A stretch of 60,308 bases of DNA from a virus. Its lineage: Duplodnaviria; Heunggongvirae; Uroviricota; Caudoviricetes. Positions 25,387 to 52,876 of this stretch are shown piece by piece. The notes beneath the pieces were generated by a model. It saw nothing but the letters and a program-made list of their open reading frames with translations. It did not search any database and had not been told where the DNA came from. The first letter of the stretch is position 1; every line of letters begins with the position of its first letter. The stretch lies in IMG/VR virus record IMGVR_UViG_2923339551_000004. The stretch is one strand, 5' to 3'. A program made the translations under genes and the position numbers.

Positions 25387-25397
25387 GCTGCCTGCTC

Positions 25398-25640: not shown

Positions 25641-25685
25641 TTTTATTTTTACCCCCTCGTTTAAAAAGTTTTTTGTGCACCACCA

Positions 25686-25918: not shown

Positions 25919-25929
25919 ATTGCCATTTT

Positions 25930-27977: not shown

Positions 27978-27994
27978 ATTATTTATTCCTCGAC

Positions 27995-28973: not shown

Positions 28974-29279
28974 ATGGCAACGGCTAACAAAAACGCAAAA
29001 TCACAACTGACAACTGTCAGAGTCCCACTAGATGTTATGCAAGGGATGGAATCCGTTAAGCTGGACGGTGAAAGCAATGCCGGATTTATCGTAACCGCCA
29101 TGCGCGGTGAAATCGCCCGCCGCCAGGCAGAAGGAAGCGGAGAAAATCCCCTCGTGTCTTCACTGGATGCCTTAGCTAAGGTCGAACAAATCGGCATCAA
29201 GGCAGCGGAGGAAATCGGGCAACTCGTAGCCGTCGCTCGTGAAGAACTCCAGCGGCGTAAAGCCAAAGAATCTGAATAA
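28974..29279 (+). CDS. hypothetical protein, divergently transcribed from the replication operon (possible regulator)
   Basis: 101 aa; RBS aggag upstream; divergent arrangement typical of a satellite control region. Confidence 0.45.
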   Translation: MATANKNAKSQLTTVRVPLDVMQGMESVKLDGESNAGFIVTAMRGEIARRQAEGSGENPLVSSLDALAKVEQIGIKAAEEIGQLVAVAREELQRRKAKESE

Positions 29280-29629
29280 TTAGTATCAGCGCCGTGATGT
29301 GAGTAACTACGGCGCATTGCTATGTAAATACTGGCAATAAACAGAAAAGGTAGTTCTACTCCGAATAATTTTATCTGACACTACTCCTGAACTAACATGC
29401 GCTTATCTTACAGGATATAAATATAAATCCATAAAATCACGATTAAATAAAGTCGCTCCAAACATAAACCACACCCAACGCTTAACAAGATAGCAACAAA
29501 CAGGTAAATAACTTGCAGAAATATTTATCGCAAGGATTATCATTATTAATGACAAATCACTTTACCAAGTCATTCCCCTCTCTTATCATAAAGAGAAAGT
29601 AATAAATAAGTTAAGGGAGTTAGAATGCT

Positions 29630-30166
29630 ATGAATCTAAAAAAAATAGCCACAAACACAAAAAACAAGATAACAGAAACATTTAATAAACTTATATTAGA
29701 GGCATCTAAAACCCCCACGCAAGATGAAATTAAAATACTTGAGAGAAGGAGTAAGAAGTTTAATTACTCCTTTTTCTCATACGCAGTCACAGGAGCTATA
29801 ATAGTTTTTTGCTCTCAACCATTAATTAAATACGCAAACCCAATACTTATTTTATTGAGTGGTCTGTTACTGTCTATCATCATTATCATTCTCAGAATGA
29901 TTTATATTTCACAAGCGAATGCATCATGGACAACCAAAAAACGCTCACATGTACTAGTTCATTTTCTTTCTGCATGTTTCATAGCATCAACATTGACGTT
30001 GCTATATCAGGCTTACGATAATAACATCACACACAAATTGTACTGTAAAAATATACAACAACTTATTGAAAAAAGGATAGAAACAGAAAAAAACATCAGC
30101 ATATTCAGTGGGATGCAATGCACCCCGGTATATGATTACTCTTTATTTGGATTTAATCTCTTATAA
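29630..30166 (+). CDS. AT-rich predicted membrane protein
   Basis: 178 aa; two strongly hydrophobic segments (AIIVFCSQPLI, ILILLSGLLLSIIIIILRMIYI); very low GC; aagggag RBS. Confidence 0.5.
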   Translation: MNLKKIATNTKNKITETFNKLILEASKTPTQDEIKILERRSKKFNYSFFSYAVTGAIIVFCSQPLIKYANPILILLSGLLLSIIIIILRMIYISQANASWTTKKRSHVLVHFLSACFIASTLTLLYQAYDNNITHKLYCKNIQQLIEKRIETEKNISIFSGMQCTPVYDYSLFGFNLL

Positions 30167-30235
30167 AGAATGTTATTACTGATTTGAGTACAAATTCTCA
30201 AATCAGTAATTCATAATATTTTATTCTGAGATAAT

Positions 30236-30472
30236 TTAAACTACCCACTCACCTCGAATCCATGCCTGCACTTCTGAAAGACGATATGCAACAGCAGTGG
30301 AACCAATCTTGATCCGCTTAGGAAATTTTCCTTCCTTCTCCAGCTTCCAGCGTGTGCTGTTCGCAAGAGTGGTTAGCTCCCGACATTCTTTCTCACGGAT
30401 CATTCGGTCAATGTTAGGAATGTACTCCAGACCCTTTTTATCAACAATTGCCATTTTTTTCATGTTAACCAA
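30236..30472 (-). CDS. alpA: AlpA-family transcriptional regulator / excisionase-like
   Basis: 78 aa, ...ELTTLANSTRWKLEKEGKFPKRIKIGSTAVAYRLSEVQAWI; directly downstream of the integrase. Confidence 0.7.
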   Translation of the reverse strand: MVNMKKMAIVDKKGLEYIPNIDRMIREKECRELTTLANSTRWKLEKEGKFPKRIKIGSTAVAYRLSEVQAWIRGEWVV

Positions 30473-31700
30473 CCTTTTGTTTGAGGATTGTCACTTTTGA
30501 ATCAGCACCTGCGATGCTATTGAGATATGTAGTCCAGAGTTCCAGAGCATCCAGTTTTTTAGCCATAAACTTACTCCGGTTGTAAACACCTGCCACGCCA
30601 GGTAGCGCATGGCCTAACAGTTGTTCTACTACATAAAATTCAACACCGAGATCACTTAGATGAGTAGATAGCGTTCTTCTAAGGTCGTGTAGTGACCATT
30701 GTTTTTCATGGCCCAAACGTTTACCGATTTTCCCCCCAATCTTGCTTACGCTTTCTCTAATTCGCAGACTTCCCAGCACATAACCAGTATGTTTTGTCTC
30801 TTCGTGAACATCCGTTACCCACTGTCGTAGAATTTCAGGTACTGGTCTGACGATTTCAACACCAGTTTTTGAGTGATCTTTTGGTACAGTCCAAACCCAA
30901 CTTTCGAGATCCCATTCGCTCCATTCTGATAATCGGGCTTCACTCATTCGACATCCAAATACTGTACAAAGCACAAACATTTTTCGCGTGTATTCAGACA
31001 TTAGTTTTAAATCAGGCTCGACAAAAATTGCCTTCCAGAGCTGGCCGAGTTCGGCTTCATCCAGAACCCGATCCCGCTTACCTGCAATCTGCCCCACATC
31101 ACTCATGCGCAAATCCTTTAAAGCATCACACGTCGCGTACTGGCGTACCCGACAAAAACGAAGAGCTAATTTAGTGTCAGAAAAAACATACGCCGCCATA
31201 ACTGGTGCATTACGTTTAATTCGGTCAAAACAGTCCAGCCATTCATATAGGTGAGTGTCATTTACGGGCAAATGACCGATATAGGGAAAGATATGCTTTC
31301 GAAATCTGCCAAGCGTTACAGCATGAGTTTTACGACGCACCTTACAGTAATTTTCATACCAGTAATTTAGTGCATCCTCCACTGTAACCGGCTTTAAGCG
31401 TTCTTCAGCCTGAATCTTAATCTGGATACGCGGATCACGTTTGTCAGCCAACCAACCACGGCACTCGTCGCGCTTTTCCCTTGCCTGTTTGAGTGACATA
31501 TCAGGATATTTACCCAACGTTAGCCAGACCGGAGCAGCCCGGCCACCTGCTAACCTGTAGAAGAAAACAAAGCTCACAGCCCCTTTAGTACTCACACGAA
31601 TAGAAAGCCCCTTTCCATCAGCAATGGTGATCTGCTTTTCTCTGGGTTTCCCCAGATATCCTTTAAGCGCTTTGTCGCTCAGTTTGTTCTCGCCAGCCAT
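30465..31700 (-). CDS. int: tyrosine recombinase / integrase (P4-type), satellite
   Basis: C-terminal catalytic region with HDLRRT and LLGH...Y motifs; start placed at MAGENKL (track ORF extends to 31751); adjacent to the att repeat. Confidence 0.85.
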   Translation of the reverse strand: MAGENKLSDKALKGYLGKPREKQITIADGKGLSIRVSTKGAVSFVFFYRLAGGRAAPVWLTLGKYPDMSLKQAREKRDECRGWLADKRDPRIQIKIQAEERLKPVTVEDALNYWYENYCKVRRKTHAVTLGRFRKHIFPYIGHLPVNDTHLYEWLDCFDRIKRNAPVMAAYVFSDTKLALRFCRVRQYATCDALKDLRMSDVGQIAGKRDRVLDEAELGQLWKAIFVEPDLKLMSEYTRKMFVLCTVFGCRMSEARLSEWSEWDLESWVWTVPKDHSKTGVEIVRPVPEILRQWVTDVHEETKHTGYVLGSLRIRESVSKIGGKIGKRLGHEKQWSLHDLRRTLSTHLSDLGVEFYVVEQLLGHALPGVAGVYNRSKFMAKKLDALELWTTYLNSIAGADSKVTILKQKVG

Positions 31701-31832
31701 TTTTAGCCCCAAAAAGCAATACAAGCTGCAATACAGAGATGATTGCAACACACAGATAACGAGGAAAATTCAGTGAAAGCACCAGATAAACTTATTCTTT
31801 ATTATCAAAAGATTAAGTGTAAAAACCAGCAA

Positions 31833-32108
31833 CTACACGAAAGCCTCAGAAAGCCATGCTAAGTGCTTGGGTTTGACATATCCCGGCGTAAATTCAGAGG
31901 TGGAGCCGCCACGGGAACGGATAACCTCACCGGAAACAATCGGCGAAACGTACAGCGCCATGTTTACCAGTCCCGGAATTTGTGAGAGATAGACTTTCTC
32001 CGTAGTGAAGGGATAGCTCTCACGGAAAAAGAGACGCAGAAACAGCGGATCAAACTTAAATTTCTGCTCATTTGCCGCCAGCAGCTGGGCGGTTGTGTAC
32101 ATCGACAT
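31833..32108 (-). pseudogene. E: major capsid protein E, N-terminal fragment (82 aa) fused to 9 satellite-encoded codons
   Basis: MSMYTTAQLLAANEQKFKFDPLFLRLFF...GYVKPKH then LAWLSEAFV and stop; breakpoint at the KPKH codons. Confidence 0.9.
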
Positions 32109-32163
32109 AAAAAAATCCCGTAAAAAAAGCCGCACAGGCGGCCTTTAGTGATGAAGGGTAAAG

Positions 32164-32496
32164 TTAAACGATGCTGATTGCCGTTCCGGCAAACGCGGTC
32201 CGTTTTTTCGTCTCGTCGCTGGCAGCCTCCGGCCAGAGCACATCCTCATAACGGAACGTGCCGGACTTGTAGAACGTCAGCGTGGTGCTGGTCTGGTCAG
32301 CATCAACCGCCAGAATGCCAACGGCAGCACCGTCGGTGGTGCCATCCCACGCAACCAGCTTACGGGTGGAGGTATCCAGCATCAGCGGGGTCATTGCAGG
32401 CGCTTTCGCACTCAATCCGCCGGGCGCGGTTGCCGTATGTGCCGGGTCACTGTTGCCCAGCGGCTGGTAATGGGTAAAGGTTTCTTTGCTCGTCAT
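32164..32496 (-). CDS. D: head decoration protein D
   Basis: [27 protein letters not shown]..., near-identical to lambda D. Confidence 0.95.
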
Positions 32497-32505
32497 AAAC
32501 ATCCC

Positions 32506-33805
32506 TTACACTGGTGTGTTCAGCAAATCGTTAACGGCATCAGATGCCGGGTTACCTGCAGCCAGCGGTGCCGGTGCCCCCTGCATCAGACGATCCAGCG
32601 CAGTGTCACTGCGCGCCTGTGCACTCTGTGGTGCAGCTGCCAGAATGCGGCGGGCCGTTTCCACGGTCATACCGGGGGTTTCGGCCAGCACGCGTGCCTG
32701 TTCTTCGCGTCCGTGAGCCTCCTCACAGTTGAGGATCCCCATAATGCGACTGTTTTCTGCCGCAACCGCTGCGGTGATCTGCGCGTTCACGTCCGGCTGC
32801 GCCGCGCTGGCGTTCTCGCCCTCCGTCGCTTGCACCACGCCAGTAACGTCAGCCTGCGAAGCAGTGGCTGAAACAGTTGTTGATTGAGTCTCTTTGGTCA
32901 TTCGCCCTCCTGAGAGACGGGATTTACGTGCATCCAGTGCATCACGCATGACGGTGATCGCATCGGTACTGTTAACAAGTTCATCAGCCAGTCCGGCATC
33001 AATGGCCTCCTGACCGCTGTACACTGCAGCCTCGGTATCCAGCACAGCCTGCACGGACAGGCCGGTATATGCCGACACCTTCTGCGCAAACATCTGACGG
33101 GTTGCGTCCATCCGGGACTGCAGTGTCTCCCGGACGTCATCCGGAAGATGGCTGTAGGGATTGCCATCCACCTTATGGCTGCCGCTGTAAATCAGCGTGA
33201 TTTCCACACCCTGTTTCTCCAGGGCAGCACCGTAATTACTGTGAGCCATCATGACGCCGATGGAGCCTGTCCGGGCGGTCTGCGTGACCAGACGCCGGGA
33301 GGCGGCACTGGCAAGCAGCTGACCTGCACTGCAGTTCATGTCGTTGGCCAGCGCCCATACCGGTTTTATGTCACGCACACGGGCGATGATGTCAGCGCAG
33401 TCAAATGCCCCCGCCACCATTCCGCCTGGCGTGTCCATATCGAGCAGAATGCCGTCCACCATCGGGTCGCTGGCAGCCTGTTGCAGACGGGCGATAATGC
33501 CGTTGTAACCGGTCATCCCCGAGTACGGCTGCAGCGCCCGCGTCCGGCTGACCAGCGTGCCGGACACCGGCAGCACGGCGATGCCGTTCATGACCTGATA
33601 ACTGCGGGCCTGTCGTGGTCCGTCATCATCACCGGATAATGCCAGCGTCGCGAGTGCCTCCTGGGCAGTCAGGCTGTCGCCGGACACCGCATCCGTCAGG
33701 CGGCTGATCCCAAGCTGGCCTGCAAGCGCACAAAAGAAAACCCGCGCATAGGCGGGTTCAAGCATCAGCGGCTCATTAAAGGCCATGCTGGCAATATGCG
33801 GGAGA

Positions 33806-33815
<10 letters not shown>
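32506..33815 (-). CDS. C: capsid assembly protease C with nested scaffold Nu3
   Basis: Lambda C homolog (TAELRNLPHIASMAFNEPLMLEPAYARVFF); likely GTG start at 33815 with aggagg RBS, overlapping the B 3' end; the track ORF extends to 33960. Confidence 0.9.
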
Positions 33816-37506
<3,691 letters not shown>

Positions 37507-37532
<26 letters not shown>

Positions 37533-38052
37533 TCAGCAACCCCGGTATCAGTTCATCCAGCGCGGCTGCTTTGTTCATAGCTTTGATGATATCCCGTTTC
37601 AGGAAATCAACATGTCGGTTTTCCAGTTCCGGAAAACGCCGCTGCACCGACAGGGGGATCCCGTCGAGAATACTGGCAATTTCACCTGCGATCCGCGACA
37701 GCACGAAAGTACAGAATGCGGTTTCCACCACTTCAGCTGAGTCTCTGGCATTCTTCAGTTCCTGTGCGTCGGCCTGCGCACGCGTAAGTCGATGGCGTTC
37801 GTACTCAATAGTCCCTGGCTGCAGATCTGTCTCGCTGGCCTGCCGCAGTTCTTCAACTTCCCGGCGCAGCTTTTCGTTCTCAATTTCAGCATCCCTTTCG
37901 GCATACCATTTTATAACGGCGGCAGAGTCATAAAGCACCTCATTACCCTTGCCACCGCCTCGCAGAACGGGCATTCCCTGTTCCTGCCAGTTCTGAATGG
38001 TACGGATACTCGCACCGAAAATGTCAGCCAGCTGCTTTTTGTTGACTTCCAT
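37507..38052 (-). CDS. Nu1: terminase small subunit Nu1
   Basis: 181 aa, MEVNKKQLADIFGASIRTIQNWQEQGMPV. Confidence 0.95.
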
Positions 38053-38149
38053 TGTTCATTCCACGGCCAAAAACAGAGAAAGGAAACGACAAAGGCCCAA
38101 AAGTTCGTTTTCAGCACCTGTCGTTTCCTTTCTTTTCAGGGGTTATTTT

Positions 38150-38290
38150 AAATAAAAACATTAAGTTACGACGAAGAAGAACGGAAACACCTTAAACCGG
38201 AAAATTTTCATAAATAGCAAAAACCCGCGAGGTCGCCGCCCCGTAACCTGTCGGATCGCCGGAAAGGACCCGTAAAGTGATAATGATTAT
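38150..38290 (-). other. cos: helper prophage cos site, with the 12-nt cohesive-end sequence at 38230..38241
   Basis: aggtcgccgccc is the reverse complement of the lambda cohesive end GGGCGGCGACCT; flanked by cgtaacctgtc (lambda right end). Confidence 0.9.
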
Positions 38291-38996: not shown

Positions 38997-39290
38997 ATGA
39001 AAAAAATGTTGTTTTCTGCCGCTCTGGCAATGCTTATTACAGGATGTGCTCAACAGACGTTTACTGTTGGAAACAAACCGACAGCAGTAACACCAAAGGA
39101 AACCATCACCCATCATTTCTTCGTTTCGGGAATTGGACAGGAGAAAACTGTTGATGCAGCCAAAATTTGTGGCGGCGCAGAAAATGTTGTTAAAACAGAA
39201 ACCCAGCAAACATTCGTAAATGGATTTCTCGGTTTTATTACTTTAGGCATTTATACTCCGCTGGAAGCGCGTGTGTATTGCTCACAATAA
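38997..39290 (+). CDS. bor: Bor lipoprotein
   Basis: MKKMLFSAALAMLITGCAQQTFTV...; lipobox LITGC; start placed at MKKML. Confidence 0.9.
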   Translation: MKKMLFSAALAMLITGCAQQTFTVGNKPTAVTPKETITHHFFVSGIGQEKTVDAAKICGGAENVVKTETQQTFVNGFLGFITLGIYTPLEARVYCSQ

Positions 39291-39321: not shown

Positions 39322-39783
39322 CTATCTGCACTGCTCATTAATATACTTCTGGGTTCCTTCCAGTTGTTTTTGCATAGTAATCAGCCTCTCTCTGAGGGTG
39401 AAATAATCCCGTTCAGCGGTGTCTGCCAGTCGGGGGGAGGCTGCATTATCCACGCCGGAGGCGGTGGTGGCTTCACGCACTGACTGACAGACTGCTTTGA
39501 TGTGCAACCGACGACGACCAGCGGCAACATCATCACGCAGAGCATCATTTTCAGCTTTCGCATCAGCTAACTCCTTCGTGTATTTTGCATCGAGCGCAGC
39601 AACATCACGCTGACGCATCTGCATGTCAGTAATTGCCGCGTTCGCCAGCTTCAGTTCTCTGGCATTTTTGTCGCGCTGGGCTTTGTAGGTAATGGCGTTA
39701 TCACGGTAATGATTAACAGCCCATGACAGGCCGACGATGATGCAGATAACCAGAGCGGAGATAATCGCGGTTACTCTGTTCAT
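39322..39783 (-). CDS. Rz: inner-membrane spanin Rz
   Basis: [36 protein letters not shown]..., lambda Rz. Confidence 0.9.
39381..39563 (-). CDS. Rz1: outer-membrane lipoprotein spanin Rz1, embedded in Rz in the +1 frame
   Basis: [24 protein letters not shown]...PPPPPAW. Confidence 0.9.
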
Positions 39784-40277
39784 TGCTGACCCCACAAACA
39801 GATTTCACGCTCAATCTCACGACGAGTCATGAGACCTTTCCATTGCTTACCGCCAGCATATGTCCAGCGACGTAGCTGATCACATGCGCCTTTAATATCA
39901 CCCTGGTTTATTTTGCGAAGAAGCGTCGATGTTCTGAAATTGCCAGCACCCACGTTGTAGACGAACGAGTAAAGAGCGCCGCGCGTTGTTTCCGGTATAT
40001 CGACTTTGATGTACGGGTTAATTTGTCTGGCGACAGTGGCAAGGTCTTTATTCAGGAGGGCTTTGCACTCTGCTTCGGTATACGTTTTACCGGGAATGAT
40101 GTCTTTTCCTGTATGCCCGTGACATACAGTCCATACACCAACTATGTCTTTGTAAGGATTATGTCTCACACCTTCCAGACCATCGTTACCACTTGGGCCA
40201 GTGATTAATACAGATGCTATAGCAATAGCCCCGCCACCAATAGCAGCAGCAACAGCTTTTCGTAATGATGGAGGCAT
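39780..40277 (-). CDS. R: SAR endolysin (T4-lysozyme-like), phage-21 type
   Basis: [37 protein letters not shown]... N-terminal signal-anchor-release domain; matches the P21 endolysin, not lambda R. Confidence 0.9.
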
Positions 40278-40492
40278 TATCCACCTCTCGCAGCCTTGCG
40301 CTTATCTTCTTTAATCTTGAAATAAAGGTTTGTCAGGTACGTCAGCAGGCCAAATACCAGGCTACCCAGCACTCCAATTGCCGCCCACTGTGAGGGCGTG
40401 ACTTTATCTAGCAGCTGTAAAAACCAGTACCCGGCACTACCTGCTGAGGTGCCATAGGCGACACCCGTTGTTAACTTATCCATGGATTTCAT
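40277..40492 (-). CDS. S: pinholin S21
   Basis: [26 protein letters not shown]..., two TM segments, basic C-terminus. Confidence 0.9.
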
Positions 40493-41064
40493 AACCCCAC
40501 CTCGCAGACAAAGCGGGTGTAAATTGAGGGAATACTACGAAACGTAACAGACTCGGAGTCAGTGAATAACTCAGGTATTGGGTTATCAGCTAATATCGAG
40601 ACTCAAAAAATGGAAAAACCCGCTCGACGGCGGGTTTAAGCTGTGTGACGAAGTAACCACTCTTAACAGCATAACCAATTTTTTACGTACGTAAACCACT
40701 AAATGATATTTGCGAGAATGCTACCGAGTATTGAAAACACCACTACAAATACATAAGCAAATCTCAACAAATAACCAACAAATAATTTCCAGTGTTATTT
40801 TTAGCTGGTTTAAATTGAACCTTCAAATTATAGAGCACTTATAAATAACAGCCGTTAATATAAATTGGCTAACAGATTTATTTTTATTCAGCCAAGAGCC
40901 ATGAATAGGATTCGATAGAAAAAAGTTCAGATAAAAATAGAGATCTACTTCACAAATCAAACGAGAAACCAAAACTTACATCTTGAAATAATCACATTGA
41001 TTAGATGAATATTTATCGCGCAGTGACATCATTTTTTAATAATAGTTCAAAAAAAGGGCTCACG

Positions 41065-42162
41065 ATGAAAAAATTAACAGTGGCAATTTCTGCTGTAGCT
41101 GCATCAGTACTGATGGCGATGTCTGCTCAGGCAGCTGAAATTTATAATAAAGACAGTAACAAGCTGGATCTGTACGGGAAAGTTAATGCTAAGCACTACT
41201 TCTCCTCTAATGATGCAGATGATGGTGATACTACTTATGCCCGTCTTGGCTTCAAAGGTGAAACCCAAATCAACGATCAACTGACTGGTTTCGGTCAGTG
41301 GGAATATGAATTCAAAGGCAACCGCGCTGAATCTCAAGGTTCCTCCAAAGATAAAACCCGTCTTGCCTTCGCTGGCCTGAAATTCGGTGACTACGGCTCC
41401 ATCGATTACGGCCGTAACTACGGTGTAGCATACGACATCGGTGCGTGGACTGACGTCCTGCCAGAATTCGGTGGTGACACTTGGACTCAAACCGACGTGT
41501 TCATGACTCAACGTGCAACTGGTGTTGCAACCTATCGTAACAACGACTTCTTTGGTCTGGTTGATGGTCTGAATTTTGCTGCTCAGTACCAAGGCAAAAA
41601 CGATCGTAGCGATTTCGATAACTACACTGAAGGTAACGGTGATGGCTTCGGTTTCTCTGCTACCTATGAATACGAAGGATTCGGTATCGGTGCAACTTAT
41701 GCGAAATCTGATCGTACCGACACTCAAGTTAATGCAGGGAAAGTTCTTCCTGAAGTATTTGCTTCCGGTAAAAATGCAGAAGTTTGGGCCGCAGGTCTGA
41801 AATATGACGCTAACAACATTTACCTGGCCACTACCTATTCTGAAACCCAGAATATGACTGTATTTGCTGATCACTTCGTTGCTAATAAAGCCCAAAACTT
41901 CGAAGCTGTTGCACAATATCAGTTCGATTTCGGTCTGCGTCCGTCCGTTGCTTACCTGCAATCTAAAGGTAAGGATCTTGGAGTATGGGGCGATCAGGAC
42001 TTAGTCAAATATGTTGATGTAGGTGCAACCTATTACTTCAACAAAAATATGTCTACTTTCGTTGATTACAAAATCAACCTGCTTGACAAAAATGACTTCA
42101 CTAAAGCACTCGGTGTAAGCACTGATGACATCGTTGCTGTAGGTCTGGTTTACCAGTTCTAA
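41065..42162 (+). CDS. nmpC: phage-borne outer membrane porin (NmpC/Lc-like)
   Basis: Signal peptide [23 protein letters not shown], beta-barrel porin sequence ending ...VGLVYQF. Confidence 0.9.
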
Positions 42163-42298
42163 TCTGATTACGAAAAAGATATGTTGCGGGAGGCGTTGCC
42201 TCCCCAACATATAAGTGGCTCCCTCAAGCCACTTCCTTTAGAAGCACAACCTTGCTTCTAACTATATAAACCTTCTGTTATATATTACCCTTTATTTT

Positions 42299-42323
42299 TG
42301 GGGGCGTCTCAACGCCCCATTTT
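42299..42323 (+). terminator. intrinsic terminator downstream of the porin gene
   Basis: ggggcgtctcaacgcccc followed by atttt; further hairpins at 42188..42258. Confidence 0.6.
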
Positions 42324-42351
42324 TAATAATTTTTAGTAAACAATTGGCATA

Positions 42352-42735
42352 TTAATTAGAGTTATTAACAACGATATCCATCTCTAACCGGATATCTAAT
42401 GCCATTAACATCCCTTCAATTATACCCTCAGCCTTCTGTAACCTTTTCCCGATATAACCATCAGAGCAGCAATGCTTACCTGCCAGTGACATGAATGTCA
42501 TACCGACTACATAATAATCTACTAATAAATCGTGCAAATCGCTGTTGTTCTTTTTCAGACGGGCCATGCACCCGCAAATGATCATCGCGTCATCGTCACA
42601 ACATTGCGGGCGAGATTTTACTTTTGAAGTAATTAATCCCTTAAAACCGGCGGCAATGGACGACCAGGTCACATCTTCATGATTATTAGCCGCCCACGCT
42701 CCCCAACGCTCAAGAACCATCTGAATATCACGCAT
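42352..42735 (-). CDS. Q: late antiterminator Q (phage 21 / QuuD type)
   Basis: [22 protein letters not shown]..., matches DLP12 QuuD / Q21. Confidence 0.9.
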
Positions 42736-42957
42736 CAACTTACTCCACAAAAATCAGACCAGAACGCCAATTACAAGCAAAAATCAACAAAACAGTATTA
42801 GTTGATTGTTATCTCTGACTTCATACTCCTGCTCCTGTCAGGGTTTTGGCGTAATTCTTCAGTATTCGGTAATCGGTCAAAACAGAACCGGGGAAACGAT
42901 ATAAGCGCAGACGCCCCCAGCGGTGGCGAAGAAGTTCTGCCATATTAAACTCAAACA

Positions 42958-43320
42958 TCATTCATTCCCCATTTCGGTGATGGTCAGTTCCAGCCTCCCA
43001 CCTTTGGTAACAGGCATCTTCACAACGCGGTAATCAACGACCTGAGCATCATCCAGCCAGAAACCTGCTTTGGTGAGTGCGTCAAAAGAGGCTTTTTGCA
43101 GATTATCCAGGTCACGGCGACGGCGATCCGGCATGTGGCACTCAATGCGGATTTTCACAGGCATAGCCAGGCCGATATCCAGCATTGCGTTTTTAATGAT
43201 TCGGGCGACGTTATCGCAGTATGCCTGCCCCTCTGCGCTAACGTGCGTGCGCCCGCGATTATGGCGGTAATAGCGATTATTGCTCGGAGGCCAGGGTAAT
43301 GTGATGCTGTAGGTATTCAC
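42958..43320 (-). CDS. rusA: Holliday junction resolvase RusA
   Basis: 120 aa, [34 protein letters not shown]...; GTG start. Confidence 0.95.
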
Positions 43321-43323
43321 GCC

Positions 43324-43534
43324 TTAATAACCCCCTCTTTCAGCCAGATAACCTGTGTTCTCGCCATACCTTCCAGCGCGCATTCTTTTGCATATGCAGC
43401 ATCGACTTGCTTGGCATGCCCTTTACCGGCAATCTTCTGTATGCGCTAAACCTAGATAGAATCCACTCTGTGCACATTGAAGCCCGCTCTATGCTTCCTT
43501 TCAGGTATTGAAGGGATTGAGATGGGCTAAGCAT
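43324..43534 (-). pseudogene. recombinant remnant: ninF-like start joined to the C-terminal ~25 codons of a ybcO-like gene
   Basis: ORF 43340..43534 begins [10 protein letters not shown] (NinF-like); a different frame ending at 43324 encodes ...[29 protein letters not shown] (YbcO C-terminus) with stops upstream. Confidence 0.55.
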
Positions 43535-43874
43535 TATTGGCCTCCTGCATCAGGAGAAAGACAATCATGGCGGCGCGGAGAGGTCTGGCATCAAATATTG
43601 GGCTTACGCCTTTTGCATCCACACACCATTCAGTTAACTGGTCTAAGATAGAAATCCTGTATTTCTCAATAATCGGCCATGAAGCGCTCGGATCATTGCA
43701 GTAGTCAGGCAAATGATTTAATGGCTCAAAAGTTGTATCAGCATTTCCGTAATACCATTTGTTGGTGTTATTCCCTGATGTTTCCGGTTTACTTGCCCAA
43801 AGGCCTTTAAAAATTATGTCTCCTACCATTCTGTTAATTTCAAAATCACTTAACTGTGAATAATCCATTGTCAT
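43527..43874 (-). CDS. hypothetical nin-region protein
   Basis: ORF with start [14 protein letters not shown] overlapping the stop of the upstream gene. Confidence 0.45.
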
Positions 43875-44047: not shown

Positions 44048-44571
44048 GCCGCCCTCCTGACGCCCTGCCCGATCGCCATCAATGCCGCTTTGGATACGGT
44101 AGTAAACATCCGTCGAGGACTGATGAACGGTCGCCAAATCAGCAGCATGGAGCCTTTGCTGTTTCCCTTCTTCTCCAGCCCTGTCGATGGTTCGATAAAA
44201 TTAATCCGTCCATCAGTGATAATGCGAACTTCGTCGACACTCTCCAGAGCCTTGCTGAACCATCCGACTGACATATCCTCTGGCACAAGCATAACTACCG
44301 TCTGTCGCTGTTGTATGCACTGCTCAGCGGCTTTTTCCACCCACGGCCTGATATTGCTGTACGGTGGGTTATTCCAGATTGCACCGTGGCTTACCCACTC
44401 AGAATTGAGCGCGTCGTCGGCCTCAGTTAGCCAGTGAGCACACAGAGCATTTTTGTCGCTCGCTGCAGAATCCAGCCAGAATCCAAACTCAATATCCAGT
44501 GCATCAAAAAGCCAAAGCGGCGTTTGCCAGCAGTCCTTGTCGTGTGCTGGCGTATTTGATTTGATAGTCAT
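44044..44571 (-). CDS. phage DNA N6-adenine methyltransferase (Dam-like)
   Basis: Motif [12 protein letters not shown] (NPPY); start placed at [20 protein letters not shown] (track ORF extends to 44631). Confidence 0.75.
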
Positions 44572-45008
44572 GCAGCCCGATCTCCCCATCTCGCTTTCCA
44601 CTCCAGAGCCAGTCTCGCTTCGTCTGACCACTTAACGCCACGCTCTGTACCGAATGCCTGTATAAGCTCTAATAGCTCCGCAAATTCGCCTACACGCATC
44701 CTGCTGGTTGACTGGCCTATTACCACAAAGCCATTCCCGGCAAGGTTAGGAACAACATCCTGCTGCTTTAATGCTGCGGTAAACACACACTTCCAGCTTT
44801 CTGCATCCAGCCAGCGACCATGCCATTCAACCTGACGAGAGACGTCACCTAAGCAGGCCCATAGCTTCCTGTTTTGGTCTAAGCTGCGGTTGCGTTCCTG
44901 AATGGTTACTACGATTGGTTTGGTTGGGTCTGGAAGGATTTGCTGTACTGCGTGAATAGCGTTTTGCTGATGTGCTGGAGATCGAATTTCAAAGGTTAGT
45001 TTTTTCAT
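44568..45008 (-). CDS. ninB: recombination protein NinB
   Basis: MKKLTFEIRSPAHQQNAIHAVQQILPDPTKPIVVTIQ... Confidence 0.95.
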   Translation of the reverse strand: MKKLTFEIRSPAHQQNAIHAVQQILPDPTKPIVVTIQERNRSLDQNRKLWACLGDVSRQVEWHGRWLDAESWKCVFTAALKQQDVVPNLAGNGFVVIGQSTSRMRVGEFAELLELIQAFGTERGVKWSDEARLALEWKARWGDRAA

Positions 45009-45081
45009 GACTTCCCTCTCCCCCAAATAAAAAGGCCTGCGATTACCAGCAGGCCTGTTATTAGCTCAGTGATGTAGATGG

Positions 45082-45372
45082 TCATCTTTTAACTCCATAT
45101 ACCGCCAATACCCGTTTCATCGCGGCACTCTGGCGACACTCCTTAAAAATCAGGTTCGTGCTCATCTTTCCTTCCCGTTCTTCCTTGGTAGCAAACCGGT
45201 AATACACCGTTCGCCAGACCTTACCTTCGATAACCAGAAGACCTGCCCGTGCCATTTTAGCCGCGGCCTGATTTATGCTGGTTACTGTTGCGCCTGTTAG
45301 CGCGGCAACGTCCGGCGCACAGAAGCTATTATGCGTCCCCAGGTAATGAATAATTGCCTCTTTGCCCGTCAT
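45082..45372 (-). CDS. ren: Ren
   Basis: 96 aa, MTGKEAIIHYLGTHNSFCAPDVAALTGATV... Confidence 0.95.
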   Translation of the reverse strand: MTGKEAIIHYLGTHNSFCAPDVAALTGATVTSINQAAAKMARAGLLVIEGKVWRTVYYRFATKEEREGKMSTNLIFKECRQSAAMKRVLAVYGVKR

Positions 45373-46070
45373 ACACTTGCTCCTTTCAGTCCGAACTTAG
45401 CTTTGATTTCTGCGATCTTCGCCAGAGCCTGTGCACGATTTAGAGGTCTACCGCCCATGACAGGAAGTTGTTTTACTGGTTCAGGGATCGCCTCACCACG
45501 GTTAATTCTCGCAGTCATATGGACAAGCTCATCTGCGGCCTTACGGCGTAATTCCGCATCAGTAAGCGCATTGGCCCGCATGTTCTGATACAGGTTGGTA
45601 ACCAGCCAGTAGTGCGCGTTTGATTTCCACGGATAAGACTCCGCATCCGGATACAGGCCTCGCTTCCGGCAATACTCGTAAACCATATCAACCAGCTCGC
45701 TGACGTTTGGCAGTCCGGCGATAACGGATGCTTCTTCCCGGCACCATGCAACAAACTGCCCGGGTGATGGCAGAAATGGTCGATTCTGCCGACGGGCTAC
45801 GCGCATTCCTGCGTTAACCTGTTCCATTGTGGTGATCCCGTTTTCCCGGAAAGCCAGCACCCACTGGCGGCGGATTTCGTTCAGTTCGTTCTGGTCCCGG
45901 TTAGCCAGGCTCGCCGGGAAAGTTGCCAGTAACTGGCTGAACACACCATTGATGATCTGCGCTACCTGTTGTACCTGCGGCTTTTCGTCGTACTGTTCCG
46001 GCATGTTGTTGGCGATCCGACGCATCTGCTCACGGTCAAAGTTAACCATCTGTGCGGCGATGTTTTTCAT
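45369..46070 (-). CDS. P: replication protein P (helicase loader)
   Basis: 233 aa, lambda P. Confidence 0.95.
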   Translation of the reverse strand: MKNIAAQMVNFDREQMRRIANNMPEQYDEKPQVQQVAQIINGVFSQLLATFPASLANRDQNELNEIRRQWVLAFRENGITTMEQVNAGMRVARRQNRPFLPSPGQFVAWCREEASVIAGLPNVSELVDMVYEYCRKRGLYPDAESYPWKSNAHYWLVTNLYQNMRANALTDAELRRKAADELVHMTARINRGEAIPEPVKQLPVMGGRPLNRAQALAKIAEIKAKFGLKGASV

Positions 46071-46966
46071 AAATCCACCCCGTAAATCCAGTCAGTGTTT
46101 GTCAGGTCGAGTTTTGGTTTGCTGGCTGTCACGCCTGCCTGTTGCTTGTTACGGTTGATTTCGAGCTGGGTCCACTTGTCGCGGAGTTTGGCCGGACTCA
46201 GCACGTTACCGGACCAGAAGTTGTCCTGGCAGGCCCAGCGGAAAAGCACACACATATCGCGGTGGTTACGTCCGTCACGTTCACGCATCAGGCGGATATC
46301 GTTAGCCCACCCAGCAAAATTCGGTTTTCTGGCTGATGGTGCGATAGTCTTCACCATGTCAAACATCCACTCTGCGGCGGTCAGGTCTTCTGCTGTCCCC
46401 CACTTGCTGCCGCTCTGAATTGCAGCATCCGGTTTAACCACAGAAAGATCGTTTTCTGGCTGGTCAGAGGATTCGCCAGAATTCTCTGACGAATAATCTT
46501 TTCTTTTTTCTTTTGTAATAGTGTCTTTTGTGTCCCCCTGTTTTGAGGGATAGCAATCCCCCAATTTGAGGGATGTTTTATCCCTCGTTTTAGGGGATTG
46601 TCCCTCGTTTTGAGGGATACACCATTCTGAGATGTTTTTATTTGGTCCAAACATGCCGCCTTGCTGCTTGATAATATTCATTCTGACGAGTTCTAACTTG
46701 GCTTCATTGCACCGTTTGACAGGTAACTTTGTAATCTCGCTAAGTTGAGAATCGGTGATTCTGTCCATTGGTTTATTCCACCCATAGGTTTTACGCAGAA
46801 TGGCAAGCAGCACTTTAAACTGTCGCTTGGTCAGATCTGCGCCCGAATAAGCCTCAAGCAGCATATTTGATAGTCTGGCGTAACCATCATCGAGATCTGC
46901 CACATTACGCTCCTGTCCGGCAAAGTTACCTCTGCCGAAGTTGAGTATTTTTGCTGTATTTGTCAT
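46067..46966 (-). CDS. O: replication initiator O
   Basis: 299 aa, lambda O; contains the ori iterons. Confidence 0.95.
   Translation of the reverse strand: MTNTAKILNFGRGNFAGQERNVADLDDGYARLSNMLLEAYSGADLTKRQFKVLLAILRKTYGWNKPMDRITDSQLSEITKLPVKRCNEAKLELVRMNIIKQQGGMFGPNKNISEWCIPQNEGQSPKTRDKTSLKLGDCYPSKQGDTKDTITKEKRKDYSSENSGESSDQPENDLSVVKPDAAIQSGSKWGTAEDLTAAEWMFDMVKTIAPSARKPNFAGWANDIRLMRERDGRNHRDMCVLFRWACQDNFWSGNVLSPAKLRDKWTQLEINRNKQQAGVTASKPKLDLTNTDWIYGVDL
46480..46640. promoter_or_regulatory. ori: ori-lambda inside O: four iterons plus AT-rich region
   Basis: Four tccctcaaaacgaggga-type repeats at 46541..46640 and an adjacent A/T-rich tract at 46480..46540. Confidence 0.9.
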
Positions 46967-46976
46967 AATGACTCCT

Positions 46977-47053
46977 GTTGATAGATCCAGTAATGACCTC
47001 AGAACTCCATCTGGATTTGTTCAGAACGCTCGGTTGCCGCCGGGCGTTTTTTA
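46977..47053 (+). ncRNA. oop: OOP antisense RNA (antisense to the cII 3' end)
   Basis: Position relative to cII/O as in lambda; terminator hairpin gccgccgggcg plus T-run at ~47030..47056. Confidence 0.6.
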
Positions 47054-47292
47054 TTGGTGAGAATCGCAGCAACTTGTCGCGCCAATCGAGCCATGTCGTC
47101 GTCAACGACCCCCCATTCAAGAACAGCAAGCAGCATTGAGAACTTGGGAATCCAGTCTCTCTTCCACCTGCTGATCTGCGACTTATCAACTCCCACAGCT
47201 TCCGCTGTCTTCTCAGTTCCAAGCATTGCGATTTTGTTAAGCAACGCACTCTCGATTCGTAGTGCCTCGTTGCGTTTGTTTGCACGAACCAT
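46999..47292 (-). CDS. cII: transcriptional activator CII
   Basis: MVRANKRNEALRIESALLNKIAMLGTEKTAEAVGV...; start at MVRANK. Confidence 0.95.
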   Translation of the reverse strand: MVRANKRNEALRIESALLNKIAMLGTEKTAEAVGVDKSQISRWKRDWIPKFSMLLAVLEWGVVDDDMARLARQVAAILTNKKRPAATERSEQIQMEF

Positions 47293-47371
47293 ATGTAAGT
47301 ATTTCCTTAGATAACAATTGATTGAATGTATGCAAATAAATGCATACACCATAGGTGTGGTTTAATTGGAT

Positions 47372-47386
47372 GCCCTTTTTCAGGGC
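47372..47386 (-). promoter_or_regulatory. nutR: nutR boxB
   Basis: gccctttttcagggc, reverse complement of the boxB hairpin gccctgaaaaagggc. Confidence 0.8.
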
Positions 47387-47410
47387 GGGGATGGGTAAGA
47401 GCGGGGTTAT

Positions 47411-47620
<210 letters not shown>

Positions 47621-47637
47621 TTAGTACATGCAACTAT

Positions 47638-47701
47638 TATCACCGCCAGAGGTAAAATAGTCAACACGCACGGTGTTAGATATTTATCCCTTGCGGTGAT
47701 A
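47638..47701. promoter_or_regulatory. OR: right operator OR1-OR2-OR3 with divergent promoters pR and pRM
   Basis: tatcaccgccagaggta (OR1), tcaacacgcacggtgtta (OR2), tatcccttgcggtgata (OR3). Confidence 0.9.
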
Positions 47702-47708
47702 GATTTAA

Positions 47709-48425
<717 letters not shown>

Positions 48426-48552
48426 TAGGAAGTAAGTTTTATGTTGACGGCACAGTCAACTTGGCATAGATTAATTAAACCAAGCCCAGCCCCGTTCGCA
48501 GACAATTGTTAATATCTGCATAACGGCTCTGGGCTATTTTTTTGGGACTCTT

Positions 48553-49410
48553 ATGAAGAAAGCAGCAATTTTAATTGATGCGGGTTTTTTCATGCAGCGT
48601 GTTCATGCTACGCATCGTAAACACTTCGCCGAGCATGAACTGACTGCGCAATGCATAATGAAAGTAATATGGTCAATGGTTCTTTCCCATCTTAATGGAA
48701 AACGTCAATCACAAGAACGTAGGGAACCGCTTGAGCTTTATAGAATTTACTTCTATGACTGTCCACCACTCGACATTCAAACACGCCTTCCACTTCCTGA
48801 GCCTGGCAATAAGACGCCTGGTCGCAAGAATTTCAAACTCGAAAAATCATATATTCTGAGAACGGAGCTGCATGAAGAGTTAAGAAAAACTCGAAAAACA
48901 GCCTTAAGATTAGGGAATCTTGTTGATAATAAGCGATGGCAACTAACTACATTCTCCCTTGATGCTCTGATGAAAGGAACGAAAAAATGGGATGAACTGA
49001 CAAATGATGATTTTTACTATGACATCAAACAAAAACAAGTTGATATCAAGCTAGGGATGGATATCACGACTTTAGCTTATGAAAAACTTGTTGATGTAAT
49101 TGTCCTTGTTGCTGGGGACTCAGACTTTGTGCCTGCCGCCAAACACGCCAGAATTAAAGGTATTGATTTTATTCTTGATCCACTAAGACAGAATGTTACC
49201 CCATCACTGTCAGAGCACATTGATGGAGTTCAGTCATACAGCTTGATATCAGGACTTGCCGATGCTTTACATGTTGAGCCAGACCCGGCACCTGACTGGT
49301 GGGAAGATCGAAAAAAAGGCAAGCCTAGGGGAAAAAACAATAGCGGTAAACGCAGGTATGGAAACACTCAAGCTGAGTCTGCAAAGAAACATCAAAGAAA
49401 TAAACGATAA
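48553..49410 (+). CDS. NYN-domain (PIN-like nuclease superfamily) protein with basic C-terminal tail, occupying the rexAB position
   Basis: N-terminal AILIDAGFF, central KQVDIKLGMDITTLAYE and VIVLVAGDSDFVPAA resemble NYN/LabA-like motifs; no similarity to RexA or RexB. Confidence 0.55.
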   Translation: MKKAAILIDAGFFMQRVHATHRKHFAEHELTAQCIMKVIWSMVLSHLNGKRQSQERREPLELYRIYFYDCPPLDIQTRLPLPEPGNKTPGRKNFKLEKSYILRTELHEELRKTRKTALRLGNLVDNKRWQLTTFSLDALMKGTKKWDELTNDDFYYDIKQKQVDIKLGMDITTLAYEKLVDVIVLVAGDSDFVPAAKHARIKGIDFILDPLRQNVTPSLSEHIDGVQSYSLISGLADALHVEPDPAPDWWEDRKKGKPRGKNNSGKRRYGNTQAESAKKHQRNKR

Positions 49411-49600
49411 TCCCATCAACCCGGCCACCGAGCCGGGTTTTCTTTGCCTCACGATCGCCCCACCTAAAAACACATAACCAATTGTATTTATTTTAAAATT
49501 AATAGGTGCAACTCACTAAACAACGCAATTCTGATCTCTCGATCACCTCCCAAGCCACACAACCCTGCAAAAAATAAATCTATATAAAAAACATACAGAT

Positions 49601-50789: not shown

Positions 50790-50930
50790 TTAAAAGACAG
50801 GCATACTAATAAACACTGCACTGTGTATTTATTCCAACGAGTGAATACACGGAGCAATGTCGCTCGTAACTAAACAGGAGCCGACTTGTTCTGATTATTG
50901 GAAATCTTCTTTGCCCTCCTGGATTTGCCC

Positions 50931-51836
50931 CTATATTTCCAGACATCTGTTATCACTTAACCCATTACAAGCCCGCTGCCGCAGATATTCCCGTGGCGAG
51001 CGATAACCCAGCGCACTATGCGGATGCCATTCGTTATAATGCTCGAACGCCTCTGCAAGGTTCTTTGCTGCCGTTAACCCGTCTGGTTTGGGCATGATAC
51101 TGATGTAGTCACGCTTTATCGTTTTCACGAAGCTCTCTGCGATTCCGTTACTCTCCGGACTCCGCACCGCCGTGTTCTTCGGTTCAAGTCCCAACATCCG
51201 GGCGAACTGGCGTGTTTCATTAGCCCGGTAGCATGAACCATTATCCGTCAGCCACTCCACTGGAGACGACGGAAGATCGTTGCCGAAGCGGCGTTCCACC
51301 GCTCCCAGCATGACGTCCTGTACTGTTTCACTGTTGAAGCCGCCGGTAGTGACCGCCCAGTGCAGTGCCTCACGATCACAGCAGTCCAGCGCGAACGTGA
51401 CACGCAGTCTCTCTCCGTTATCACAGCAGAACTCGAACCCGTCAGAGCACCATCGCTGATTGCTTTCTTTCACGGCCACTCTGCCTGTATGTGCCCGTTT
51501 CGATGGCGGTACAGCAGGTTTTCGCTCAAGCAACAGCGCATTCTGGCGCATGATCCGGTAAACACGTTTGGCATTGATCGCAGGCATACCATCAAGTTCT
51601 GCCTGTCTGCGAAGCAGCGCCCATACCCGACGATAACCATACGTGGGCAGCTCTCCGATAACATGGTGTATACGGAGAAGCACATCCGTATCATCAGTGT
51701 GACGACTGCGGCGGCCATCCATCCAGTCATCGGTTCGTCTGAGAATGACGTGCAACTGCGCACGCGACACCCGGAGACAACGGCTGACTAAGCTTACTCC
51801 CCATCCCCGGGCAATAAGGGCGCGTGCGCTATCCAC
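50931..51836 (-). CDS. insD: IS2 transposase InsD (OrfB)
   Basis: 301 aa, DDE transposase. Confidence 0.9.
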
Positions 51837-52159
51837 TTTTTTGCCCGTCCATATTCAACGGCTTCTTTGAGGAGTTCATTTTCCATCGTTTTCTTGCCGA
51901 GCAGGCGCTGGAGTTCTTTAATCTGCTTCATGGCGGCAGCAAGTTCAGAGGCAGGAACAACCTGTTCTCCGGCGGCGACAGCAGTAAGACTTCCTTCCTG
52001 GTATTGCTTACGCCAGAGAAATAACTGGCTGGCTGCTACACCATGTTGCCGGGCAACGAGGGAGACCGTCATCCCCGGTTCAAAGCTCTGCTGAACAATT
52101 GCGATCTTTTCCTGTGTGGTACGCCGTCTGCGTTTCTCCGGTCCTAAGACATCAATCAT
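51794..52159 (-). CDS. insC: IS2 InsC (OrfA)
   Basis: [47 protein letters not shown]... Confidence 0.9.
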
Positions 52160-52294
52160 CTGCTCTCCAATGACTAGTCTAAAAACTAGTATTAAGACTA
52201 TCACTTAAATAAGTGATACTGGTTGTCTGGAGATTCAGGGGGCCAGTCTACCTCCAGTGTGAGGGCGATTTTTTATCTATGAGGATATGAATAG

Positions 52295-52663: not shown

Positions 52664-52736
52664 GTGCGGCTTTACCGCATACCAATAACGCTTCACTCGA
52701 GGCGTTTTTCGTTATGTATAAATAAGGAGCACACCA

Positions 52737-52876
52737 TGCAATATGCCATTGCAGGGTGGCCTGTTGCTGGCTGCCCTTCCGAATCTTTACTTGAACGAAT
52801 CACCCGTAAATTACGTGACGGATGGAAACGCCTTATCGACATACTTAATCAGCCAGGAGTACCCAAAAATGGATAA
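52737..52876 (+). CDS. cIII: CIII (FtsH inhibitor)
   Basis: [46 protein letters not shown]. Confidence 0.9.

Follow-up and report, generated by a model that had tools for sequence, protein, structure and literature searches.

Genes and features at the locus

The stretch of DNA analysed here, which we call the window (60,308 nucleotides; IMG/VR record IMGVR_UViG_2923339551_000004, Caudoviricetes), holds a prophage that lies on the minus strand and is integrated at the lambda attachment site. The attP core is at window 58978, and the host gene flanking the prophage encodes a pectinesterase domain; we take this gene to be ybhC. Immunity, replication, head and tail genes are of lambda type, with 98-100% identity to lambda from cII through ninB and 95-98% in the head and tail genes. 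The gene set is a full lambda-type set, save for IS insertions and for an embedded satellite that splits gene E. Late-gene function yields no virions unless this satellite excises. The late-control and lysis region, with the end of the nin region, contains the following features.

38997-39290, plus strand: bor/iss lipoprotein gene, 97 aa, opposite to the late genes and downstream of Rz (PF06291, E 4e-30)
39322-39783, minus strand: Rz, i-spanin, 153 aa (PF03245)
39381-39563, minus strand: Rz1, o-spanin, 60 aa, embedded in Rz, lipobox VVGC (open reading frame list and identity to phage 21)
39780-40277, minus strand: R, SAR endolysin, 165 aa (PF00959)
40277-40492, minus strand: S, class II pinholin, EssD allele (PF04971, 'P21 holin S', E 2e-35)
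40616-40637, minus strand: terminator-like hairpin and T-run, about 125 nt upstream of S (pattern scan; region 100% identical to DLP12)
41065-42162, plus strand: porin, 365 aa, intact nmpC form, convergent with Q and divergent from S (PF00267, E 5e-157)
42352-42735, minus strand: Q, late antiterminator of the Q21 family, QuuD allele, 127 aa (PF06530, E 3.5e-53)
42821-42961, minus strand: ylcG, 46 aa, between rusA and Q (100% aa identity to K-12 YlcG)
42958-43320, minus strand: rusA, Holliday-junction resolvase, 120 aa (PF05866, E 2e-21)
43317-43406, minus strand: 'ybcO, last 29 codons and stop of a DUF1364 (YbcO) gene, a pseudogene remnant (alignment to K-12 ybcO)
43340-43534, minus strand: 64-codon chimeric ORF (ninF', middle segment, and 'ybcO out of frame; ORF list and frame analysis)
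43407-43471, minus strand: middle segment of about 65 nt, of a third origin (matches in phage records and IMG/VR)
43472-43534, minus strand: ninF', first 21 codons of a P22-type ninF (blast match to P22 ends at window 43472)
43527-43868, minus strand: ninX, 113 aa, last gene of a left-hand P22/434-type nin module (PF10765, Phage_P22_NinX, E 6e-17)

By the ORF list and Pfam, the pinholin, SAR endolysin, Q, rusA and porin genes all lie where a preliminary description of the region had placed them. Of the named genes, only porin and bor run on the plus strand; the others are on the minus strand. The gene ylcG was missing from that description's gene list.

A DLP12-type late module in a lambda-type prophage

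The region had been read as part of a prophage with lambda-type structural, immunity and replication genes, a late-control and lysis block of another type, and a recombination scar in the nin region. Comparison by blastn supports this core reading. Matches to lambda are restricted to O through ninB, ninE, Rz through bor, and the cos-proximal segment, and the structural and immunity/replication segments are indeed lambda-like, at 95-100% identity. Window 43406-38943, by comparison, is colinear with the K-12 cryptic prophage DLP12. From the 3' end of ybcO to bor, order and orientation are those of DLP12 (ybcO-rusA-ylcG-quuD-nmpC-essD-rrrD-rzpD/rzoD-borD), with 99-100% nucleotide identity from 43406 to about 40300 ('ybcO, rusA, ylcG, Q, porin and S). 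At the protein level, Q and YlcG are 100% identical to their DLP12 counterparts, as is the porin to K-12 NmpC reconstructed without its IS5; the values are 99% for S, 98% for RusA, in which PF05866 spans residues 9-114, and 96% for R. A QuuD-type Q, a convergent nmpC-type porin, an essD-type S and an rrrD-type R thus occur together, the combination that marks the DLP12 or qsr'-type late module.

The two loci also differ. The nmpC gene of DLP12 carries IS5 and its ybcO is intact, whereas the window has an uninterrupted nmpC and only the end of ybcO. The upstream partner is ybcN-ninE in DLP12, compared to ninX and a ninF stub here. In addition, phage 21 is a closer match than DLP12 for R, for bor and for the 5' part of Rz. 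Finally, DLP12 is a decayed remnant, whereas the block in the window sits in a prophage with a full lambda-type gene set.

The late region had been assigned to a combined 'phage-21 / DLP12 type', of which the DLP12 part stands and phage 21 as donor does not. Phage 21 has ninG, a ninH fragment, Q21 and two tRNAs, then S; it lacks rusA, ylcG and the porin, all three of which are present in the window. A tRNA scan found no tRNA genes, and the tRNA pair of phage 21 is absent from the window. The window Q belongs to the Q21 family, based on PF06530 and a detectable BLASTP local match to Q21 (29%, E 4e-11), yet its identity to Q21 is only 23-29%. Because of this low identity, and because phage 21 lacks rusA and the porin, 'DLP12-type' is the accurate label. 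Very probably, the region is a standard DLP12 (qsr')-type late-control and lysis module in a prophage with lambda immunity and a lambda attachment site. This combination of modules is ordinary and was already catalogued among lambda-like E. coli prophages. The region is a textbook case of lambdoid modular mosaicism, and its importance is small beyond right annotation.

Lysis genes, bor and the interval between Q and S

The lysis genes share their protein families and the dual-start pinholin design with the phage 21 cassette: a P21 S-family holin with two starts, a SAR endolysin, and a spanin pair with Rz1 inside Rz. The N-terminus of S reads MKSM, with Met1 and Met4 giving S71 (start at 40492) and S68 (start at 40483). 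The designation 'pinholin S21' is correct as to family, although the allele is of EssD type, with 99% amino acid identity to EssD against 85% to S21; the 5' part of S is 74-76% identical to that of phage 21 at the nucleotide level. R is 96% identical both to R21 and to RrrD. It is an endolysin with a Gly/Ala-rich N-terminal signal-anchor-release segment (residues 8-27) and a Glu-Asp-Thr catalytic triad (E35/D44/T50), both read from the translation, and is predicted to be released from the membrane.

Rz and bor had both been called lambda-like. This holds for Rz, whose identity is highest to lambda (99%), followed by phage 21 (97%) and DLP12 (96%); Rz1 is 100% identical to that of phage 21. It does not hold for Bor, at 98% identity to phage 21, 91% to lambda and 90% to DLP12. 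A mismatch map places R, the 5' part of Rz, the 5' half of bor and the region upstream of bor closest to phage 21. The bor product has a Lambda_Bor domain and a lipoprotein signal, and PGAP names this allele iss.

Upstream of S, the K-12 IS5 target site in nmpC (about 42096-42104) is uninterrupted in the window, and the blastn pieces abut there. The intact nmpC represents the K-12 DLP12 locus as it was before IS5. In Lambda_ev245, near-identical Q and S genes flank other cargo (a lipocalin gene, a ybgA-like gene and others), and the Q-S interval is thus an exchangeable cargo slot.

A three-piece scar in the nin region

At the left boundary of the module, ninX (annotated by PGAP as a NinX family protein at the 100%-identical strain 104 locus) ends in an 8-nt overlap with the start of the chimeric ORF, as ninX and ninF do in P22. 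The ninX stop and the 21 ninF codons are 91% identical at the nucleotide level to the P22 ninX-ninF junction (E 8e-27). In comparison to the P22 nin region (ninE-ninX-ninF-ninG), all sequence past ninF codon 21 has been replaced. No NinF in the full-length sense remains, as the Cys-rich part (CxxC ... CxxCC) is gone.

Past the middle segment, at a CGATG microhomology, begins the ybcO remnant. An intact YbcO/DUF1364 gene has about 96 codons; here 29 are left, with no in-frame start upstream, and PGAP/RefSeq flags exactly these 90 nt as an incomplete DUF1364 domain-containing protein missing its N-terminus. The remnant keeps the rusA Shine-Dalgarno sequence (GAGGGGG) and a TGA/GTG stop-start overlap with rusA. 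Alignment thus gave no continuous single-source late region with an intact ybcO; it shows ybcO truncated.

The preliminary description had placed a fusion of ninF to the last ~25 codons of ybcO at 43324..43534 and had taken it as a recombination mark. The pieces are confirmed by matches to P22 ninF and K-12 ybcO, and the mark is real. The remnant, however, is 29 codons and a stop, and the structure is more than a simple fusion: it has two junctions and three pieces, with ybcO out of frame with the ORF that starts at the ninF ATG.

Distribution of the junction and of the late block

The middle segment occurs in 31 phage records, 27 with the same junction and four from Stx1 phages at 87.7% identity. 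An exact-pattern scan of IMG/VR gave 118 loci, comprising 81 of window type, 36 of the type seen in AU6Stx1 (AU6-type) and one AU6-type locus with an IS5 insertion. Elsewhere a ninF 5' stub always directly precedes the segment, and the contexts are two: the same-junction phages, and the left edge of inserted cargo in the Stx1 phages AU6Stx1 and SH2026Stx1. In other words, the ninF'-middle junction is common to the window type and some Stx1 phages. Neither the phage database nor the IMG/VR exact-pattern scan contained an intact gene that includes the 65-nt segment, and neither Pfam nor PADLOC gave a match for the 590-aa cargo gene adjoining it in AU6Stx1. H95 was considered as an alternative ybcO allele reaching into the middle segment and was rejected, being a prophage of the same type that has undergone a deletion.

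The complete three-part junction is present in 583 of 5,426 complete E. coli genomes, as well as in the 27 phage records and 81 IMG/VR loci. The late block (4.66 kb) is found at a coverage of at least 80% in 2,088 of the 5,426 genomes. The arrangement is among the commonest lambdoid configurations in E. coli and is not special to the window genome. From O to cos, the window matches phage mEp332 at 98.6% identity over 100% of the length, and coverage of this segment is 80% or more in 16 phage records. Among the closest counterparts are the temperate coliphages mEp332, ev243, ev207, 2G7b, ev017, PhiR11_1, PhiR57_1 and Chlobot (GenBank PV340541, LR597639 and others). Most of them carry the O-to-cos segment with its three-part scar at 95-98.6% identity and 92-100% coverage; in Chlobot, 78% of the 9-kb segment is covered and the junction is 100% identical. 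They differ from the window by point differences only, and they are free isolates, as against an integrated prophage with a satellite in gene E. The nin scar is a dateable three-piece marker that could trace the descent of a widespread late module.

Is the 64-codon ORF a gene?

Given its position, the chimeric ORF could be a genuine small protein or leader peptide, either a NinF variant or an ORF whose translation couples ninX to rusA. Every phage with this junction keeps the frame open, and the ATG overlaps the stop of ninX in the manner of P22 ninF. The TGA stop adjoins the Shine-Dalgarno sequence of rusA on its 5' side, with the rusA GTG 16 nt further on. Phage records label the ORF 'hypothetical protein' or 'protein ninF', the latter in two RefSeq phage records. 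Counter to this, the product has no Pfam family match, NinF's Cys-rich part is missing from it, out-of-frame ybcO makes up its last third, and PGAP does not call it. Comparison with AU6Stx1 gives 10 nucleotide differences in 81 nt, corresponding to about 7 amino acid changes in 30 codons, with no sign of purifying selection. Furthermore, 33 of the 37 AU6-type loci have TAA at the fourth ninF codon. We consider a genuine product unlikely; most likely, the ORF is not a functional protein.

Slightly less probable still is that the ybcO tail and the ORF may have been kept together as a translational-coupling leader for rusA. If this were true, translation from the ninF ATG, coupled to ninX and ending 5' of the rusA Shine-Dalgarno sequence, would set the level of RusA.

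Origin of the mosaic

We suggest that old recombination events produced the arrangement, which has since been passed on as a block. The scar probably formed in two successive illegitimate events. In the first, insertion of a cassette would have truncated ninF after codon 21, with the 65-nt middle segment as the left edge of that cassette. In the second, a deletion or a join at the 5-nt CGATG microhomology would have fused the middle edge to ybcO codon 68. The order of the two events is one that we infer from distribution alone: the ninF'-middle junction would be older than the middle-'ybcO junction because it is common to two lineages with different left and right partners. That as much of the ybcO tail survives is plausibly because it carries the ribosome-binding site of rusA.

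One alternative is recent acquisition of the late block in this strain, through a cross of a lambda-like prophage with a DLP12-like cryptic prophage resident there, the route by which laboratory hybrids of the qsr' type and phage 434B arose. Arguing for this case is the 99-100% identity to K-12 DLP12 from 'ybcO to S, together with the GenBank record of the mutant phage 434B (OL657227), a recombinant of 434 and DLP12. This record documents such an exchange, with one end at a crossover in ylcG and the other just upstream of S; like the window, 434B has a DLP12-type Q-nmpC-S segment in a lambdoid genome. Unlike the window, 434B keeps ninF, ninG and ninI, and the nmpC it received carries IS5.

Several observations speak against recent acquisition in this strain. 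The full arrangement, with its non-homologous left junction, recurs without change in 583 genomes and in 27 phages of independent isolation. DLP12 has ninE followed by the intact ybcO and lacks ninX, the ninF stub and the middle segment, so the left boundary did not come from homologous exchange with DLP12. Moreover, the affinity of R, Rz and bor is to phage 21 rather than to DLP12. With a left junction that is non-homologous and widely inherited, a recent hybrid with a resident DLP12 is very unlikely, and we reject it in favor of old assembly and inheritance as a block. There is next to no chance that the junction is an assembly or scaffolding artefact, as different laboratories have obtained the identical sequence many times over, in independent complete genomes as well as in phage genomes.

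Late control and proposed operation

Judging from the families of its genes, the module would operate as follows. On induction, N-antiterminated rightward transcription would pass through ninB, dam, ninE, ninX, the scar, rusA and ylcG, and lead to expression of Q. Q would then modify RNA polymerase at the late promoter and allow terminator readthrough. The resulting late transcript would express S (S71 as antiholin, S68 as holin), the SAR endolysin R and the Rz/Rz1 spanin, and, continuing across cos, the lambda-type head and tail genes. Porin and bor/iss are probably lysogenic-conversion genes, oppositely oriented and with their own promoters.

The control elements of this scheme are harder to place. 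A consensus scan of the Q-porin and porin-S spacers gave no credible sigma-70 site or Q-binding element on the late strand, the window has no similarity to the pR' region of phage 21, and comparison with the Q-S interval of Lambda_ev245 gave no common motif. Rfam at gathering thresholds had no match in the late region. The hairpin at 40637-40616 is a candidate for the late terminator that would be read through by Q-modified RNA polymerase acting at pR'. A passage in PMC7918800 (citing pmid 23378572 and pmid 25998262) reports that the DLP12 S-R-Rz/Rz1 operon is under a prophage Q-type antiterminator and RpoE.

A candidate RpoE-like motif, GAACTA-N16-TCACT, was spotted by eye on the late strand at about 41045-41015. 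Its position would fit a published reporter fragment spanning -121 to +650.

Type of the late block

The prophage in the window is lambda-like and lies on the minus strand; a scar sits between its ninX gene and rusA of the late block. The late genes that the preliminary description had named and placed were each borne out by the ORF list and Pfam, and its overall mosaic interpretation is supported, with the refinements described here.

Late-block genes (coordinates, strand, feature)
42958-43320, minus, rusA (PF05866)
42821-42961, minus, ylcG (no Pfam match)
42352-42735, minus, Q (PF06530)
41065-42162, plus, porin (PF00267)
40277-40492, minus, S (PF04971, 'P21 holin S')
39780-40277, minus, R (PF00959)
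39322-39783, minus, Rz (PF03245)
39381-39563, minus, Rz1
38997-39290, plus, bor (PF06291)

To type the block, we compared the window by blastn with lambda, phage 21 and DLP12, the cryptic prophage of E. coli K-12. Window 43406-38943 is colinear with DLP12, at 99-100% identity from 43406 to about 40300. In protein sequence, Q matches QuuD, the DLP12 Q, at 100% identity, the porin likewise matches K-12 NmpC rebuilt without IS5, and YlcG, S and RusA are 100%, 99% and 98% identical to their DLP12 counterparts. K-12 nmpC carries IS5, whereas the window gene is uninterrupted at exactly that site: two DLP12 blastn pieces abut there (42096-42104), so the porin gene is intact. Lambda gave no blastn match within 43874-39783, and the phage 21 match begins only at the start of S (40493), with just 74-76% identity over the 5' part of the gene. 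The phage 21 map (ninG, ninH fragment, Q21, two tRNAs, S) is without rusA, ylcG and porin, all present here, whereas a tRNA scan found no tRNA in the window. Q and Q21 share a Pfam family but only 23-29% identity; 'Q21-like', as first proposed, thus holds for the family and not for closer kinship. The DLP12 colinearity and identity, together with the differences from phage 21 and Q21, make 'DLP12-type' the accurate label.

Mismatches per 50 nt were then mapped against the same three genomes.

Mismatches per 50 nt (DLP12; phage 21; lambda)
S: 0-4; 9-14; no match
Body of R: 2-7; 2-7; no match
R 3' end and Rz 5' part: 3-5; 0-1; 0-1 (Rz 5' part only; R no match)
Rest of Rz and Rz1: roughly equal for all three
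bor 5' half and upstream (39110-38700): 9-13; 0-1; 9-13

A lambda-like character, earlier ascribed to Rz/Rz1 and bor, fits Rz, whose 5' part is equally phage 21-like, but not bor: its protein shares 98% identity with the phage 21 allele and 91% with the lambda one. In E. coli strain 104, where the locus is 100% identical, PGAP calls this gene iss. Lambda/DLP12-like sequence resumes from 38652 to cos (38241/38242).

The late region is an ordinary lambdoid module combination, already deposited and largely already annotated. Its 9-kb O-to-cos segment matches phage mEp332 over the full length (98.6% identity), and coverage of the segment reaches 80% or more in 16 phage records. The 4.66-kb late block occurs at no less than 80% coverage in 2,088 of 5,426 complete E. 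coli genomes, with 100% identity in all 12 best-scoring records listed. Lambda_ev245 has a nearly identical ninX-scar-rusA-ylcG-Q block and the same S-R-Rz, but different cargo between them, including a lipocalin gene and a ybgA-like gene; this marks the interval from Q to S as an exchangeable cargo slot.

The scar between ninX and rusA

Homology to lambda and phage 21 runs no further than the ninB stop (44568). Among the left-side genes, that for Dam methyltransferase (PF05869) is 434-type, ninE (44055-43875) lambda/21-type and ninX P22-type. The scar follows.

Scar pieces (coordinates, strand, feature)
43534-43472, minus, 21 codons of P22-type ninF (ninF')
43471-43407, minus, middle segment, roughly 65 nt
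43406-43317, minus, final 29 codons and stop of ybcO ('ybcO)

A ninF start fused to about 25 ybcO codons had been reported; both remnants are real, but the middle segment separates them and the ybcO codons number 29. The ninF' ATG overlaps the ninX stop, as in P22, and piece 1 with the ninX tail matches P22 (91% identity, E 8e-27) until 43472. 'ybcO is near-identical to K-12 ybcO, with two mismatches at its 5' end; its TGA overlaps the rusA GTG, as in DLP12, and PGAP treats the 90-nt remnant as an incomplete DUF1364 pseudogene.

The middle segment has no match in ninF or ybcO. Its only occurrences in the phage database are in 27 same-junction records and in Stx1 phages AU6Stx1 and SH2026Stx1 (87.7%); in these Stx1 phages it follows a lambda-type ninF stub and precedes a reverse-oriented 590-aa gene without assigned function, then an HNH endonuclease gene and ninG. 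The switch from AU6-like to ybcO-like sequence falls within a common CGATG. An exact-pattern scan of IMG/VR counted 118 loci: 81 are window-type and 36 AU6-type, and in the remaining one, also AU6-type, IS5 has inserted. Since the ninF'-middle junction is seen with two different left and two different right partners, it is older than the middle-'ybcO junction. We infer that the scar is the trace of at least two illegitimate events.

The 590-aa gene of AU6Stx1 (NC_049921.1 16420-18192, minus), in the ninF site directly after the middle segment, has no match in Pfam or PADLOC and could have a cargo or defence role that is as yet uncharacterised.

A 64-codon ORF (43340-43534) spans the scar and ends just 5' of GAGGGGG, the rusA Shine-Dalgarno sequence; it might conceivably act as a coupling leader for rusA. 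Recent hybridization with a resident DLP12, an exchange documented for phage 434B, is an unlikely source of the late block, as its left junction shares no homology with DLP12 and is widely inherited; the 261-nt junction is found at 80% coverage or more in 583 of the 5,426 genomes. A functional 64-aa protein is likewise improbable: the ORF has no family match, is not called by PGAP, differs mostly non-synonymously from the AU6 version and, with its ATG-initiated frame offset by 128 nt from that of ybcO, reads ybcO out of frame over one third of its length.

Predicted working

Judging from the gene families, Q-dependent antitermination would lead to expression of the lysis cassette (pinholin, SAR endolysin and spanin) and also, beyond cos, of the structural genes, with porin and bor/iss as putative conversion genes in opposite orientation. 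A passage in PMC7918800 (citing pmid 23378572 and pmid 25998262) places the DLP12 S-R-Rz/Rz1 operon under its Q-type antiterminator and RpoE. Neither a pattern scan of the Q-porin and porin-S spacers nor comparison with phage 21 and Lambda_ev245 found a late promoter or Q-binding element; the pattern scan found a terminator-like hairpin on the late strand (40637-40616).

Backbone and embedded satellite

Blastn against the whole lambda genome gave the backbone matches below, which show the prophage to be lambda-type in its immunity, replication and structural genes, as originally described.

Backbone matches (window; lambda; content)
8959-20556; 18002-6372; remaining E to J, 95%
31864-38241; 6379-1; Nu1 to start of E, 98%
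44568-48429; 41084-37223; ninB back to cI, 98.5%
57342-58978; 29361-27724; xis, int up to attP core

The gene past 58978 has a pectinesterase domain; we take it to be ybhC, neighbour of attB-lambda. At the rexA position (cI/rexB interval) lies a non-lambda 285-aa gene with an NYN nuclease domain (48553-49410, plus), and lambda has no blastn match across 48430-49417. An IS3-family element (about 50920-52250, minus; orfA 51794-52204, orfB 50931-51836) lies in the early-left region, flanked by ral-side and ea10-side lambda homology. An IS1 transposase (1739-2242; feature span 1739-2436) adjoins an AraC-family regulator (774-1526) in a region replacing the lambda b region. Rfam placed the IS009 sRNA family (3281-3479, minus, 229 bits) inside the region of the tail-fibre-assembly gene and matched the lambda cIII thermoregulator at 52723-52781 (plus, 88.5 bits).

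At codon ~80, E, the major capsid gene of lambda type, is split by an 11.3-kb element (20557-31863), whose junctions lie near 20556 and 31864 and which has the 10-bp direct repeat AACCCAAGCA on both sides.

Satellite features
30465-31751, P4-type integrase
25930-27681, D5_N primase-helicase
23679-24893, own Phage_cap_E capsid homologue
22933-23316, AlpA
22650-22864, lambda cos-like copy (92% to lambda 13-228)
21848-22429, defence-like cargo, HEPN gene
20665-21876, defence-like cargo, GmrSD_N / NsnA / PD-T4-2_A-like

The element also encodes an SSB and matches the published 'helper-embedded PICI' of 11capE type (PMC10111431). Of the 5,426 complete E. coli genomes, 172 carry its capsid/integrase junction.
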